Part shown: piece after piece, positions 1,206-9,471 of the stretch
How the letters are laid out: each line of letters begins with the position of its first letter
Position numbering within the stretch: the stretch's first letter is position 1
IMG/VR virus record: IMGVR_UViG_2534681810_000007
Coordinates: 1 to 9,471 of that record
From: a virus
Lineage: Duplodnaviria > Heunggongvirae > Uroviricota > Caudoviricetes
Strand: one strand, 5' to 3'
Length of the DNA: 9,471 nt
Notes under the pieces: model-generated
The model's input: the letters and a program-made list of their open reading frames with translations, nothing else
Told to the model about the DNA's origin: nothing
Database searches by the model: none
Translations under genes and position numbers: made by a program

Positions 1206-1699
1206 TGCTGCCCCCACAAACAGACTTCACGCTCAATATCACGACGGGTCATCAGCCCTTTCCATTGCTTACCGCCAGCGTATGTCCAGCGACGTAGCTG
1301 GTCACATGCGCCTTTGATATCACCCTGGTTTATTTTGCGAAGAAGCGTCGATGTTCTGAAATTACCAGCGCCCACGTTGTAAACGAACGAGTAAAGAGCG
1401 CCGCGCGTTGTTTCCGGTATATCGACTTTGATGTACGGGTTAATTTGTCTGGCGACCGTGGCAAGGTCTTTATTCAGGAGGGCTTTGCATTCTGCTTCGG
1501 TATACGTTTTACCGGGAATGATGTCTTTTCCGGTGTGTCCGTGACATACAGTCCATACGCCAACGATATCTTCGTATGGTATGTAGCTGACACCTTCCAG
1601 GCCATCGTCACCACTCGGACCAGTGATGAGCACAGACGCTATGGCAACAGCCCCACCACCAATAGCAGCAGCAACAGCCTTGCGTAATGATGGCGACAT
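1202..1699 (-). CDS. R: SAR endolysin (phage-21 R-type lysozyme with signal-anchor-release domain)
   Basis: 165 aa. N-terminal Gly/Ala-rich weakly hydrophobic SAR segment ([18 protein letters not shown]), then [24 protein letters not shown] with the E-D-T lysozyme catalytic arrangement. Near-identical to phage 21 R as I recall it. Start ATG 1699..1697 overlaps the holin stop. Confidence 0.92.
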
Positions 1700-1914
1700 T
1701 ATTCACCTCTCGCAGCCTTACGCTTATCTTCTTTAATCTTGAAATAAAGGTTTGTCAGATACGTCAGCAAGCCAAACACCAGGCTACCCAATACGCCTAT
1801 TGCCACCCACTGGGATGGGGAGACTTTGTCCAGCAACTGCAGTAGCCAGTATCCCGTCCCCACCGCTGACGTGGTGTATGACACACCTGTTGTTATTTTT
1901 TCCATCTGGTACAT
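1699..1914 (-). CDS. S: Pinholin (phage-21 S-type class II holin) with dual-start motif
   Basis: From the ATG at 1914 the product is 71 aa, [71 protein letters not shown]: two TM segments and a charged C-terminus, matching S21. GGGAGA lies 6 nt upstream. A second in-frame Met three codons later (M-Y-Q-M) is the holin/antiholin dual-start arrangement. The longer track ORF from 1959 has no ribosome-binding site. Confidence 0.88.
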
Positions 1915-1942
1915 ACCCCGTCTCCCGTTATCCGGAAGCTGA

Positions 1943-1977
1943 CAACAATAAAAAGCCACCAGTTAATTCCTGATGGC
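1943..1977 (-). terminator. Intrinsic terminator immediately upstream of the lysis cassette
   Basis: Minus-strand RNA would form an 8-bp stem GCCAUCAG / CUGGUGGC (one G.U) with a 7-nt loop, followed by UUUUUAUUGUUG. It lies about 30 nt upstream of the pinholin start. Confidence 0.6.
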
Positions 1978-2322
1978 CCTGATGCATAAACGTCATAATA
2001 CCTGACTGTTATGATTGACAATAATGATAATGTTTATATAGAAAGGTTCCCGATGTGTGTTACATATCATTTCTCCACGGGGAATATCCCCACGCCAGCG
2101 CAGACTCTTTTACCCGTTCTCTTCTGCGCTGGCTCTTTTTTATTATGCTGCTGCATTTACCTCTGGCACCATGCTTTCTATCTCAACACAATACGTGGTA
2201 CTTCTTGTAACCAATATCATAACGATTAATCGACATAGAATTTCTCCCGTGTACAGGAACAGAGTTAAAAAGCCGGAACCGGAATCAAATCACAGGATGA
2301 CCATCTGCCAGTGGCAGGTCAT

Positions 2323-2350
2323 AAAAAAAAGGCCGCGCCATGCGCAGCCA
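2323..2350 (-). terminator. Intrinsic terminator downstream of the moron gene (candidate tR'-equivalent)
   Basis: Minus strand reads ggcTGCGCatgGCGCGgcc followed by TTTTTTTT: an 8-bp GC-rich stem with one G.U, a 3-nt loop and a U8 tract. The plus strand has A8 before the stem and no T-run after it, so it is unidirectional. Confidence 0.65.
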
Positions 2351-2779
2351 GAACTCACAAGGAAAATGATAGAAGGAAATAACATTAGTGATGTACGCAT
2401 GGCGCCTCCCGCTAAGTTCTGCAATGATCAAACAGAACTCGCTACGTGCCCTTAAAACTCGATCATTTAGCCCCTCCAAGGAGGATTCACCATGCGGTTG
2501 ATTTTTTAATAAACAGTAAACAAAAAAGTCAAGAATTATTCATTCTGTTCTTTCATCATCGGCCACAGCAATACCACAATGCCGCAGACCAGAGCGCCAT
2601 CAGTCAGTACCAACATTATCCTGCTGGTGAAATCCATCATCACCATCACTAAAAGCAGGATCACAACAGCAAGCAGACACAGTTTATAAAACAATGTTCA
2701 GAAAACGCATTCAGCATGCCTAAGGTTCTATTCCTACGAATAGCCAACTTGCAACTTAAAATATTATTTATGCAGCCAA

Positions 2780-3538
2780 TTAAATTCTGGTCCTTACAAT
2801 ATCAACCTGAAGATTCTTATCTTGTGCTGATTGATAAATGACAAACCTTTTACTACCTGCATTGAAAGAAGTAGACAAAACCAGACAATTATCATAACGA
2901 GCAAGAACATAATACCAACCATCATTATAATTAATCATTTCATATTCTTTCTTAAACTGCGGTTTGTAATATCCTGTCAGAAATGAAAAAAGCCAGAAAT
3001 ATGCCACAAAAGCAATCATCACAATCTCAAAAAAATGTTTTTTTATAAATGGCTTATCATAGAAGCATGATACCGATAAAAATCGCCCATAAGATCTTAT
3101 CGAAATTGTAACCGCCAGCGCAATCGCTGCTGACAGTAGCAAAAGAGGTACCTGAATCTTCTGTCTCAATATAGAAAACTCAATAATTGCCGGCACAAAC
3201 AATAATTCCACAGCAAAATAAAGGCGAAATACATTTAGCTCTTGCATAGAATGTTTTCTTTTCACTGCGAAAAAGAATACAACACCAATACCCCAACCGA
3301 TAAGAAATATAGCAATGACGATAACTGCAAAAAATAAACTTCTGGCAACATCATCAACACCTGCACCTACAATCCACCATGGGAAGCCGTAGTAAAAAGA
3401 AGTACCCCATCCATAGAAATAAGCACTCCCCCATCCAAGGCATCCCATGTAGGCAATAAAAAGTGAAGAACTCCTGAGCAGCGCACCATCCTTCATAACC
3501 ACCCCAATACAAGATGATAACATTGGCTTACAACTCAT
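2780..3538 (-). CDS. Hypothetical multi-pass membrane protein of unknown function (AT-rich moron between pR' and the lysis genes)
   Basis: 252-aa ORF with about five hydrophobic helices rich in aromatic and Gly residues, and a ~60-aa hydrophilic C-terminal tail. The segment is visibly more AT-rich than the flanking phage genes. I recognise no family. Start is uncertain: the ATGs at 3538, 3523 and 3496 all lack a good Shine-Dalgarno sequence. Confidence 0.6.
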   Translation of the reverse strand: MSCKPMLSSCIGVVMKDGALLRSSSLFIAYMGCLGWGSAYFYGWGTSFYYGFPWWIVGAGVDDVARSLFFAVIVIAIFLIGWGIGVVFFFAVKRKHSMQELNVFRLYFAVELLFVPAIIEFSILRQKIQVPLLLLSAAIALAVTISIRSYGRFLSVSCFYDKPFIKKHFFEIVMIAFVAYFWLFSFLTGYYKPQFKKEYEMINYNDGWYYVLARYDNCLVLSTSFNAGSKRFVIYQSAQDKNLQVDIVRTRI

Positions 3539-3774: not shown

Positions 3775-4398
3775 CTAACGTGTGATCGCATTCAAAATGT
3801 TGTCTGCGATTGACTCTTCCTTGTGGCATTGCACAACCAGAGCGTCATACAGCGGCTTAACAGTGCGTGACCAGGTGGGTTGGGTAAGGTTTGGGATTAG
3901 CATCGTCACAGCGCGATATGCGGCGCTTGCTGGCATTCTTGAATAACCGACGCCTTTACATCTTCCGCACTCTTTCTCAGCAACTCTCCCCCACAGCTCT
4001 GTTTTGGCTATATCAACCGCACGGCCTGTACCGTGGCAATCTCTGCATCTTGCGCCCGGCGTAGCGGCACTACGGCAATAATCCGCATAAGCGAATGTTG
4101 CGAGCACTTGCAGTACCTTTGCCTTAGTATTTCCTTCAAGCTTTGCCACGCCACGGTATTTCCCCGATACCTTGTGTGCAAATTGCATCAGATAGTTGAT
4201 AGCCTTTTGTTTGTCGTTCTGGCTGAGTTCGTGCTTACCACAGAATACAGCCATTCCGAATCCGGCTTGTGATTGCGCCATCCCCATAGCAGCCATCACA
4301 TCAGTACCGGAAAGAGAGTCAGAAGCCGTGGCCCGTGGTGAGTCGCTCATCATCGGGCTTTTTGGCGAATGAAATTTAGCTATGCTTTCGAGTCTCAT
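3775..4398 (-). CDS. Q: Late-gene antiterminator Q (lambda Q type)
   Basis: 207 aa, [50 protein letters not shown]..., essentially identical to lambda Q by recall, including the Cys-rich zinc-binding region (CRDCHGTGR...CGRCKGVGY). Start ATG overlaps the phosphatase stop. Confidence 0.95.
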
Positions 4399-6712: not shown

Positions 6713-7003
6713 TCATCTTTTAACTCCATATACCGCCAATACCCGTTTCATCGCGGCACTCTGGCGACACTCCTTAAAAATTAGGTTCGTGCTCATCTTT
6801 CCTTCCCGTTCTTCCTTGGTAGCAAACCGGTAATACACCGTTCGCCAGACCTTACCTTCGATAACCAGAAGACCTGCCCGTGCCATTTTAGCCGCGGCCT
6901 GATTTATGCTGGTTACTGTTGCGCCTGTTAGCGCGGCAACGTCCGGCGCACAGAAGCTATTATGCGTCCCCAGGTAATGAATAATTGCCTCTTTGCCCGT
7001 CAT
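6713..7003 (-). CDS. ren: Ren protein (Rex-exclusion resistance)
   Basis: 96 aa, MTGKEAIIHYLGTHNSFCAPDVAALTGATVTSINQAAAKMARAGLLVIEGKVWRTVYYRFATKEEREGKMSTNLIFKECRQSAAMKRVLAVYGVKR, near-identical to lambda Ren by recall. ATGA overlap with the P stop. Confidence 0.9.
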   Translation of the reverse strand: MTGKEAIIHYLGTHNSFCAPDVAALTGATVTSINQAAAKMARAGLLVIEGKVWRTVYYRFATKEEREGKMSTNLIFKECRQSAAMKRVLAVYGVKR

Positions 7004-7243
7004 ACACTTGCTCCTTTCAGTCCGAACTTAGCTTTGAGTTCTGCGATCTTCGCCAGAGCCTGTGCACGATTTAGAGGTCTACCGCCCATGACAGGAAGTT
7101 GTTTTACTGGTTCAGGGATCGCCTCACCACGGTTAATTCTCGCAGTCATATGGACAAGCTCATCTGCGGCCTTACGGCGTAATTCCGCATCAGTAAGCGC
7201 ATTGGCCCGCATGTTCTGATACAGGTTGGTAACCAGCCAGTAG
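7000..7243 (-). pseudogene. P: Replication protein P, 3' fragment only (truncated at the IS boundary)
   Basis: The reading frame ends ...ELRRKAADELVHMTARINRGEAIPEPVKQLPVMGGRPLNRAQALAKIAELKAKFGLKGASV, matching the lambda P C-terminus. The first 9 codons of the track ORF 7000..7269 lie inside the IS inverted repeat, so only about the last 80 codons of P remain. Confidence 0.8.
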
Positions 7244-7315
7244 TGTAGTGGCACACTGAATTTGGCCACCTGAACAGAGGTGATATGCTCACCTCAGAAC
7301 AACACAGGTGCTCCA

Positions 7316-8484
<1,169 letters not shown>

Positions 8485-8493
8485 CCACTACAT

Positions 8494-9471
8494 AAAGAGT
8501 TCGGATTAGGCAGAGACAGACGTATAGCAATCACTGAAGCTATACAGGCCAATATTGAGTTGCTATCCGGGAACAGGCGTGAGTCACTGATAGACAGAAT
8601 TAAAGGCGCTGACGCAATCACTCTTCATGCGTGGCTTGACCGATATGAAACAATCCTCAGCGAGAGGGGTATCAGGCCGAAAACTCTACTCGACTACGCC
8701 AGCAAAATCAGGGCAATCCGAAGAAAATTGCCGGACAAACCGCTCGCTGACATATCAACGAAAGAGGTGGCAGCAATGCTAAACACCTACGTAGCAGAAG
8801 GTAAAGCGGCTTCCGCAAAATTAATCAGGTCAACCCTTGTTGACGTTTTTCGTGAGGCAATAGCCGAGGGGCATGTGGCTACGAATCCGGTAACAGCAAC
8901 CCGCACAGCAAAGTCAGAAGTAAGGCGCTCAAGGCTGACAGCTAATGAGTATGTCGCGATTCACCATGCAGCCGAACCTCTCCCAATCTGGCTGAGGCTT
9001 GCGATGGATTTGGCCGTCGTTACAGGTCAGAGAGTCGGCGATTTGTGCAAAATGAAATGGTCAGACATAAACGACAACCATCTTCACATTGAACAGGGTA
9101 AAACAGGGGCTAAGCTCGCCATTCCGCTGACGCTAACGATTGACGCGCTCAATATCTCATTGGCCGATACACTACAGAAATGCAGGGAGGTCAGCGGCAG
9201 TGAAACAATAATTGCATCAACGCATCACGAACCGCTTTCCCCGAAAACAGTATCTAAGTATTTTACAAAGGCGAGAAATGCATCTGGACTCTCATTTGAT
9301 GGAGACCCGCCAACATTCCATGAACTGCGTAGCCTGTCGGCGAGGCTATACCGGAATCAGATTGGCGATAAGTTTGCTCAACGTCTTCTCGGGCATAAAT
9401 CAGATTCAATGGCGGCGCGGTATAGGGACAGCCGAGGGAGAGAATGGGACAAAATTGAAATCAACAAATGA
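8494..9471 (+). pseudogene. int: Lambda-family tyrosine integrase lacking its N-terminus (about 34 codons removed at the IS junction)
   Basis: Translation from 8494 reads KEFGLGRDRRIAITEAIQANIELLSGNRRESLIDRIKGADAITLHAWLDRYE... and ends ...RGREWDKIEINK with a TGA at 9469..9471, collinear with lambda Int from about residue 35. Catalytic-domain residues appear present (GQRVGDLC, HELRSLSARLY, LLGHKSD, MAARYRD). There is no native start codon; the first in-frame start is a TTG at 8560. Confidence 0.85.

Follow-up and report, generated by a model that had tools for sequence, protein, structure and literature searches.

A seemingly gene-free stretch in the late region of a lambdoid prophage holds two known convergent small RNAs, PasD1 and EcOnc32

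Convergent pairs of small RNAs (sRNAs) that lie between a moron coding sequence (CDS) and the next phage open reading frame (ORF), 3′ of the late promoter PR′, have been described in lambdoid prophages (Tree et al. 2014, PMC4104026). One such pair resides in prophage Sp3 of strain Sakai, where EcOnc13 was found as a peak in cross-linking and analysis of cDNA (CRAC) with Hfq and runs at about 187 nt in Northern blots, while the convergent EcOnc32 forms an 89-nt Hfq-CRAC cluster and migrates at about 112 nt (Tree et al. 2014, PMC4104026). In enteropathogenic Escherichia coli (EPEC) E2348/69, the sRNAs PasD1 and PasD2 were validated by Northern blotting, depend on Hfq for stability and have partners in core and virulence genes according to RNA interaction by ligation and sequencing (RIL-seq) (PMC8550237); a preprint describes EPEC PasD as related to STnc100 but diverged from it (Zhu, Shabalina and Storz 2026). 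Here we analysed positions 1,915 to 2,779 of a 9,471-nucleotide stretch of viral DNA, referred to below as the window (IMG/VR record IMGVR_UViG_2534681810_000007, Caudoviricetes). A first-pass annotation, made from the letters alone, had seen no convincing gene in this 0.85-kb region and had regarded two minus-strand terminators as its only confident features. The region corresponds to a prophage sRNA island of an ordinary, already described kind; it is not a new element. It contains two catalogued convergent Hfq-binding sRNAs, a gene for a small membrane protein and what is left of a deleted esterase gene. That the whole is a moron/convergent-sRNA island of a lambdoid late operon is, in our estimate, true with a probability of roughly 0.88. 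The central features are the following.

2323..2495, minus strand: PasD1 sRNA (homolog in enterohaemorrhagic E. coli, EHEC: EcOnc13), 173 nt, assigned by identity to E2348/69.
2503..2532, minus strand: putative PasD1 promoter, -35 TTGACT (2532-2527), 18-nt spacer, -10 TAAAAA (2508-2503), 7 nt to G2495.
2054..2142, plus strand: EcOnc32 (Esr41-like) Hfq-binding sRNA, about 89-98 nt, 5′ end uncertain, roughly 2045-2054.
2015..2042, plus strand: EcOnc32 promoter, -35 TTGACA (2015-2020), -10 TATAGA (2037-2042).

The minus-strand RNA was identified through the published coordinates, probe and seed of PasD1 (Table S6, Pearl Mizrahi et al. 2021, PMC8550237). Window positions 2495..2323 on the minus strand are identical to PasD1 (NC_011601.1 1060260-1060432) at 173 of 173 nucleotides and to PasD2 at 168 of 173. 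The Northern probe CATGCGCAGCCAGAACTCACAAGG matches 2339-2362 exactly, and the seed UGUGAG is found at 2359-2354, just 5′ of the terminator stem 2349-2331 and its U8 run at 2330-2323. Owing to this match, the terminator correctly noticed at 2323-2350 can be assigned to PasD1 itself, and the CCTCC-nn-GGAGG palindrome at 2473-2484, previously read as a Shine-Dalgarno (SD) sequence on both strands, turns out to be the first hairpin of the structured 5′ domain of PasD1 and of the PasD/STnc100 5′ domain in general. The putative promoter starts directly after the stop codon of the membrane-protein gene discussed below, and its activity is plausible from its sequence; PasD and STnc100 loci have in common the -10 block TT(A/G)TTAAAAA and the 5′ end GCATGGTGAATCC. 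When PasD1 and PasD2 were aligned with STnc100 copies from four other loci, the central hairpin of PasD1 differed from that of STnc100 by two compensatory pairs. Directly after the U-tract of PasD1, a further hairpin was observed that has the same sequence in the PasD2 locus of E2348/69.

2296..2321, minus strand: second hairpin read from the sequence, ATGACC-TGCCA-C-TGGCA-GAT-GGTCAT, 11 bp, interrupted.

On the opposite strand, the promoter at 2015-2042 had been proposed to drive antisense transcription across the whole region. Its position was given correctly, and it heads a known Hfq-bound sRNA, but transcription stops after about 90 nt at the RNA's own terminator. This third, plus-strand terminator was missing from the first-pass list; it has the stem 2094-2104/2123-2133, a loop of 18 nt, with which it escaped a simple terminator scan, and a U-tract reaching 2142. 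The Northern probe published for EcOnc32 matches the reverse complement of window 2053-2087 exactly. The RNA is made up of a 5′ hairpin, the single-stranded seed AUCAUUUCUCCAC (about 2066-2078), a GGGGAAUAUCCCC hairpin and the long-loop terminator with its U-tract. Its 3′ end is separated from that of PasD1 by 181 nt, as compared with about 192 nt in Sakai. The EPEC tables give this position the CDS label 'E2348C_1013', which corresponds to the 132-aa ORF of RefSeq at 2057-2455 (PMC8550237). RIL-seq reads under that label are RNA2 in every EPEC chimera, with window 2142 as their 3′ end, and in cells without hfq their level drops 7.5-fold (log2 fold change -2.91, adjusted p 1e-23). The name EcOnc32 is absent from the main text of the papers in the literature searched and is catalogued in a supplementary table only. 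HnrS (EcOnc10-12) was considered for the plus-strand RNA and rejected, being 66 nt long, multicopy and located in Sp9/10/12.

EcOnc32 is conserved in sequence and structure. Across 70 viral contigs we found 11 variants belonging to three main types; the -35 is invariant among the 11, the 5′ hairpin and seed are essentially so, and the terminator stem varies with compensatory substitutions. Variants of the EcOnc32 type were also observed convergent with bona fide STnc100 between stx2B and holin in the Stx2 prophages L011 and L012 (L012: Stx2i), so that this sRNA type also travels with Shiga toxin genes.

The arrangement agrees with that of convergent pairs at moron sites: the two sRNAs face each other downstream of Q and a moron CDS, each with its own terminator, and upstream of the next ORF. 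A small RNA had been among the interpretations offered initially, and this guess was right twice, once per strand. A structured late-operon leader, also offered, does not fit PasD1, which has its own conserved promoter, its own terminator and published trans targets.

A related explanation nevertheless has to be weighed, namely that PasD1 belongs mainly to the late transcript and acts in cis, as a 3′ fragment processed from the moron mRNA or as a tR′-type terminator of PR′, rather than being a gene of its own. When the stretch from Q to the ORF of 252 aa upstream of the region was scanned for PR′/tR′, we found no intrinsic terminator and one weak promoter-like site; at the place homologous to the annotated terminator of phage 434 there is no obvious hairpin. 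The 252-aa ORF is transcribed while Q is silent (147 vs 6 reads). Taken together, transcripts from upstream could reach the PasD1 terminator and end there. As reported for StxS (PMC7547250), short PR′ transcripts can moreover be sRNAs. Against this stand the conserved -35 and -10 of PasD1, correctly spaced from the mapped 5′ end, and the retention of the -10 and the 5′ end between PasD and STnc100 in unrelated upstream contexts (stx2B, DUF3927, TerB). In addition, PasD1 reads are about 60-fold above those of the upstream gene (8652 vs 147). A mainly cis-acting PasD1 is therefore improbable, although it deserves more than passing mention.

The second of the two minus-strand terminators noticed initially lies ahead of the lysis genes.

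1943..1980, minus strand: intrinsic terminator just upstream of the holin ribosome-binding site (RBS), stem 1980-1952, 11 bp, followed by a T-run; minimum free energy -16.2.

This terminator is conserved, with a slightly shorter stem in L010 and L011 and an identical sequence in phage Evi. Together with the PasD1 terminator it would insulate the lysis genes from the sRNA and moron promoters, and the EPEC read counts fit (holin about 5, Q about 6, PasD1 8652, EcOnc32 2064). No RNAs ending at the holin-proximal terminator were found in the RIL-seq tables.

The small membrane-protein gene is the moron CDS itself, and with the two sRNA genes it contradicts the view that the region has no convincing gene and that the terminators alone are confident features.

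2536..2694, minus strand: 52-aa DUF3927/TciB-like small membrane protein (moron CDS), TTG start at 2694, RefSeq WP_000499454.1.

Residues 7-50 match Pfam PF13064 with 53 bits against a cut-off of 25 (E 3.4e-14), and the 'TciB-like' family phrog_1470 is matched with E 2.5e-17. The 36-aa hydrophobic ORF from ATG 2646, whose position had been given correctly but which had been taken as complete, is a truncated reading that corresponds to the C-terminal two thirds of this protein. The protein sequence ahead of ATG 2646 is retained (KLxLxxVxLLLxVVMxDFTSRIM) in the homologs of L010 and phage Evi, which begin with GTG. Differences by codon position (15/8/19 and 12/9/14) are weakly informative, and a literature search on 'TciB' and 'DUF3927' returned nothing relevant.

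This ORF could alternatively be a type I toxin held in check by an antisense RNA from the plus-strand promoter, in line with the small toxic peptide suggested at first. The protein is indeed small and very hydrophobic, a plus-strand promoter exists in the region, and the PHROG family carries the label 'inhibition of cell division or resistance to colicin'. However, about 400 nt separate the end of the plus-strand transcript at 2142 from the ORF at 2536-2694, and there is no antisense promoter/terminator pair across the ORF, which leaves the supposed toxin without its antisense partner. The family is a widespread moron that follows varied genes (TerB, the 252-aa protein) and is sometimes translationally coupled to them, and the locus is tolerated by EPEC with PasD1 highly expressed. 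A toxin-antitoxin function is thus highly unlikely.

Slightly less credible still is the idea that the short ORFs MRLIF, MIEF and a 17-codon ORF are functional micro- or leader peptides that regulate the lysis genes or are toxic. What speaks for it is their abundance and their good ATG spacing: ORFs of at most 40 codons preceded by an SD sequence number 5 in the region as compared with 1.88 +/- 1.38 in dinucleotide shuffles (p ~0.04), an excess of about 2.7-fold, with 1.27 per kb window-wide. The excess arises because the GGAGG/GGGAGG motifs are structural partners within the sRNA and, in one case, the RBS of a deleted gene. The positions reported for the palindrome, for MRLIF (ATG 2492, stop 2507-2509) and for MIEF were accurate; both ORFs, though, overlie the 5′ end and promoter of PasD1. 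MIEF lies within PasD1 with its GGAGG paired in the conserved 5′ domain, and its ATG is unconserved in the STnc100 relatives, which have CAATCAGC instead of AAATGATC. MRLIF runs antisense over the transcription start and -10 of PasD1, and no plus-strand promoter is evident there. MRLIF and MIEF are by-products of sRNA structure.

The 17-codon ORF (ATG 2236, stop 2185-2183) was likewise correctly placed, but it is a remnant rather than a candidate peptide.

2143..2248, minus strand: vestige of a 617-aa SASA/NanS-type esterase gene, RBS GGGAGA 2248-2243, ATG 2236, first 25 nt retained.

At the junction 2211/2212, the start of the gene is fused out of frame to its last ~70 nt. Window 2212-2260 aligns with the RBS and start of the esterase gene in L005 (MSINRYDIG vs MSIKHYDVV), and frame 0 of window 2143-2211 ends in ...VEIESMVPEVNAAA where the esterase C-terminus reads ...VEIESLMLEINAPAA. 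The gene is intact in the arrangement of PasD2 and phage 434; the deletion here spans about 1.8 kb. As an out-of-frame fusion created by this deletion, the 17-codon ORF was never selected as a peptide.

Two longer ORFs overlie the sRNAs and have entered public annotation.

2057-2455, plus strand: 132-aa ORF (RefSeq WP_012578864.1), overlies EcOnc32; annotated in several hundred complete RefSeq genomes.
2285-2479, minus strand: 64-aa ORF, overlies PasD1; phage 434 CPT_434_70, a 62-aa 'putative membrane protein'.

That these are real genes and the RNA signals their mRNAs deserves scarcely any credence in spite of the public annotation of both and the abundance of E2348C_1013 reads, for neither has a significant Pfam or PHROG match, the reads on the 132-aa ORF span its first ~60-90 nt only and end at an intrinsic terminator, as RNA2 in all chimeras, this ORF runs across two terminators and the junction left by the esterase deletion, its counterparts in PP2, L010, L011 and L012 are frameshifted pseudogenes, and the 64-aa ORF passes through the PasD terminator, with the RNA ending ahead of its stop codon. 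The two ORFs are not genes, and their public annotations look spurious.

With PasD1 and EcOnc32 established as the occupants of the region, the partners of EcOnc32 point to a function. RIL-seq in EPEC recovered 263 chimeras of EcOnc32 with the 5′ untranslated region of entC (p 4e-165). Further chimeras joined EcOnc32 to the nlpD-rpoS intergenic region (537, odds ratio 2.8), to an intergenic region of an island (72) and to the dnaK leader (28). An independent ECs0632::EcOnc32 hybrid is present in the EHEC table obtained by RNase E cross-linking, ligation and sequencing of hybrids (CLASH), in which the entC leader through the start codon is joined to AUAUCAUUUCUCCACGGGGAAU (window 2064-2085). 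The interaction is thus contained in two independent published interactome tables, and we found no main-text discussion of it in the papers searched. In the predicted duplex, the seed pairs with GUGGAGGAUGAUAU, comprising the entC SD sequence and the AUG, at -16.6 to -22.7 kcal/mol. Only 3 of 1000 shuffled entC targets paired as well, and Esr41 pairs less well than EcOnc32 at this site. Full-length duplex predictions of EcOnc32 with entC and rpoS were no better than shuffles; only the seed-restricted test is meaningful. As the related Esr41 represses chuA, cirA and bfr (validated, published), EcOnc32 most likely represses entC translation, by analogy with the action of Esr41 on these mRNAs.

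Transcription of EcOnc32 may be linked to iron as well.

2020-2038, plus strand: Fur-box-like site AATAATGATAATGTTTATA, fills the spacer between -35 and -10 of the EcOnc32 promoter, 15/19 to the Fur consensus.

A Fur site was sought as GATAATGATAATCATTATC, or as at least three NATWAT hexamers, overlapping the core promoter. The spacer holds a 15/19 match together with the hexamers AATAAT, GATAAT and GTTTAT. This match is the best in the window and was reached by 7 of 200 whole-window and 4 of 1000 local shuffles; diverged EcOnc32 variants keep a match of 14-15/19 at the same position. The promoter is probably Fur-repressed. No paper in the literature searched mentions Esr41 together with a Fur box.

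The locus was also compared with those of PasA and PasC, two further antisense sRNAs. Homology with them extends over the holin flank and the 3′ end of the esterase gene, with the 3′ half of the terminator included, and breaks between 1909 and 2126. BLAST of PasA and PasC themselves found the shared 3′ half of the terminator only. PasA, PasC and EcOnc32 have in common a TTGACAA -35 and a terminator half consisting of GCTGGCT and the U-tract (1909-2126 vs L005 3282-3710 and L006). This pattern of breaks indicates that one antisense slot, bounded by the 3′ end of the esterase gene and by the holin gene, is occupied alternatively by each of the three, and from the shared terminator half one recombination boundary appears to lie inside the terminator. 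EcOnc32 might be a Fur-controlled prophage regulator that limits enterobactin through the entC RBS, a second, independently targeted member of the Esr41 type, with PasA, PasC and EcOnc32 as exchangeable cassettes; we give this combined proposal even odds.

Several observations weigh against the interpretation given here, in whole or in part. Expression in the host of the window is extrapolated from the identical E2348/69 and Sakai sequences. The TTG start of the DUF3927 gene is not preceded by an SD sequence, and its translation here is uncertain. PR′/tR′ could not be located, and transcripts from the late promoter may contribute to PasD1. The sizes of EcOnc32 from CRAC (89 nt) and Northern (~112 nt) differ, its 5′ end is uncertain, and the -10 TATAGA is weak. 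As for entC, 37 of 1000 shuffled seeds paired with it as well as the real one, the direction of regulation is taken from the Esr41 analogy, and despite the 537 chimeras no convincing duplex was obtained for the rpoS leader (-12.4 kcal/mol). The case for Fur is a consensus match; EcOnc32 reads are 9-fold higher in Dulbecco's modified Eagle's medium (DMEM) than in lysogeny broth (LB), but PasD1 behaves likewise and the effect is hence unspecific.

From these elements the following course of events can be proposed. The late strand would be read in the order DUF3927 gene, pasD1, esterase stump, with EcOnc32 on the opposite strand, and a further terminator before the holin. In the lysogen, both sRNAs would be produced from their own promoters, bind Hfq and target host and virulence mRNAs in trans; Hfq binding and trans action have been shown in the literature for identical sequences (PMC8550237, PMC4104026). 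The anti-SD seed AUCAUUUCUCCAC of EcOnc32 would cover the RBS and start codon of entC and damp enterobactin synthesis, with Fur possibly repressing the EcOnc32 promoter. The PasD1 and holin-proximal terminators would prevent the sRNA promoters from expressing the lysis genes. On induction, Q-modified RNA polymerase would read through both terminators, judging from established lambdoid Q biology.

For annotation, this means that a seemingly gene-free prophage stretch is filled by two known regulatory RNAs with spurious public CDSs on top. If the EcOnc32-entC interaction is regulatory, enterobactin synthesis would join chuA, cirA and bfr under horizontally acquired sRNAs of the Esr41 type, and if Fur control holds as well, a lambdoid prophage would plug directly into the host response to iron starvation. 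The remaining novelty is modest: a functional hypothesis in which EcOnc32 would be controlled by Fur and repress entC, and the CDSs that are mis-annotated.

The surroundings belong to a lambdoid prophage and form its late region, which runs along the minus strand as NinB, NinE, NinG, Ser/Thr phosphatase, Q, 252-aa protein, the 0.85-kb region, holin, lysozyme, Rz and a Rha-like protein.

3775-4398, minus strand: Q antiterminator, Pfam PF03589.
2780-3538, minus strand: 252-aa membrane protein, function unknown, phrog_1521.
1699..1914, minus strand: class II holin, start ATG 1914, Pfam PF04971, RefSeq WP_000284524.1 at equivalent coordinates.

EPEC lysogens transcribe the 252-aa gene, with 147 and 90 reads, whereas Q has 6 and 1 reads and is silent. 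The holin N-terminus MYQMEK (1903-1914, minus strand) forms a two-methionine dual-start motif, as is typical of class II holin/antiholin pairs. An 86-aa holin reading from GTG-1959 overlaps the upstream terminator and was rejected as an over-extension that is unlikely to be used. The 865-base region occurs at an identity of at least 99% in 555 complete E. coli chromosomes and in part in 2088 of 5426 genomes, and 863 of its 865 bases are identical in prophage PP4 of E2348/69. Further upstream, only a C-terminal fragment remains of a lambda P-type replication protein (7000-7269, minus strand), and it adjoins an IS3-family transposase ORF (7645-8484, plus strand) and a tyrosine recombinase/integrase (8560-9471, plus strand, continuing past the window end). 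With its replication module apparently disrupted, the prophage may be defective. LpxR was not seen among the scanned ORFs, the window ending about 7 kb upstream with an insertion sequence (IS) element interrupting it; Q (PF03589) and holin/lysozyme are adjacent.

Among the described systems, the closest is PasD1 of E2348/69 itself. The sRNA agrees with that of the window in sequence, seed, terminator, flanks (Q PF03589, 252-aa protein, DUF3927, holin) and orientation, without any sequence difference. PasD2 carries 4 substitutions and 1 indel relative to the PasD1 of the window, and the esterase gene behind it is intact, whereas here a 17-codon stump is left.

STnc100 is more distant. In an Rfam scan at relaxed threshold, STnc100 (RF02076) matched 2320-2525 on the minus strand in a full-length alignment with 37.7 bits (E 1.9e-5). 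This is below the gathering score of 47 bits, so that by the Rfam threshold the sequence is related to the family but not a member of it; bona fide copies from the four other loci score 120-149 bits. Like PasD1, STnc100 (= EcOnc27 downstream of stx2B) occupies the late-operon slot, and in the four loci it faces convergently the same Esr41-like sRNA. The two RNAs share the -10, the 5′ end GCAUGGUGAAUCC, the first and central hairpins and the CGGGAGGC motif, while the 3′ third with the seed and terminator modules is unrelated. Over 2323-2530 (minus strand), compared with L010 1706-1904 and the corresponding parts of L011, L012 and L003, we observed a common promoter and a structured 5′ domain of about 100 nt.

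The counterpart of EcOnc32 is Esr41 (EcOnc14; SpLE1 island, EHEC). The Rfam scan matched Esr41 (RF02676) to 2054-2143 on the plus strand with 32.3 bits (E 0.005), below the gathering score of 102, canonical Esr41 scoring 108.6 bits. No similarity to the canonical Esr41 locus was found by BLAST of window 1700-3000; the kinship is therefore based on the covariance model together with a manual alignment, in which 54 of 70 aligned bases are identical. Both RNAs have a four-part layout with a 5′ hairpin, a single-stranded UUUCUCCA anti-SD seed, a GGGG..CCC hairpin and a GCCRGC terminator; they have the same ATTGACAA -35, and both find partners among iron-acquisition mRNAs. EcOnc32 differs in its longer terminator loop and in the 5′ flank of its seed, AUAUCAU, which extends the pairing with entC. 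It sits in a prophage late region whereas Esr41 adjoins iha, and the Esr41 promoter is without a good Fur box (12/19).

At the level of the whole locus, AsxR/EcOnc27, AgvB, PasA and PasC (Tree et al. 2014; Zhu, Shabalina and Storz 2026 preprint) show the same layout of moron CDS, late-strand sRNA, antisense sRNA and phage ORF. EcOnc32 is not one of the 'anti-sRNAs' of 51-60 nt and resembles a conventional mRNA-targeting sRNA. The locus presented here is a further copy of the convergent-sRNA module that links the lambdoid prophages of EPEC and EHEC to host regulation.

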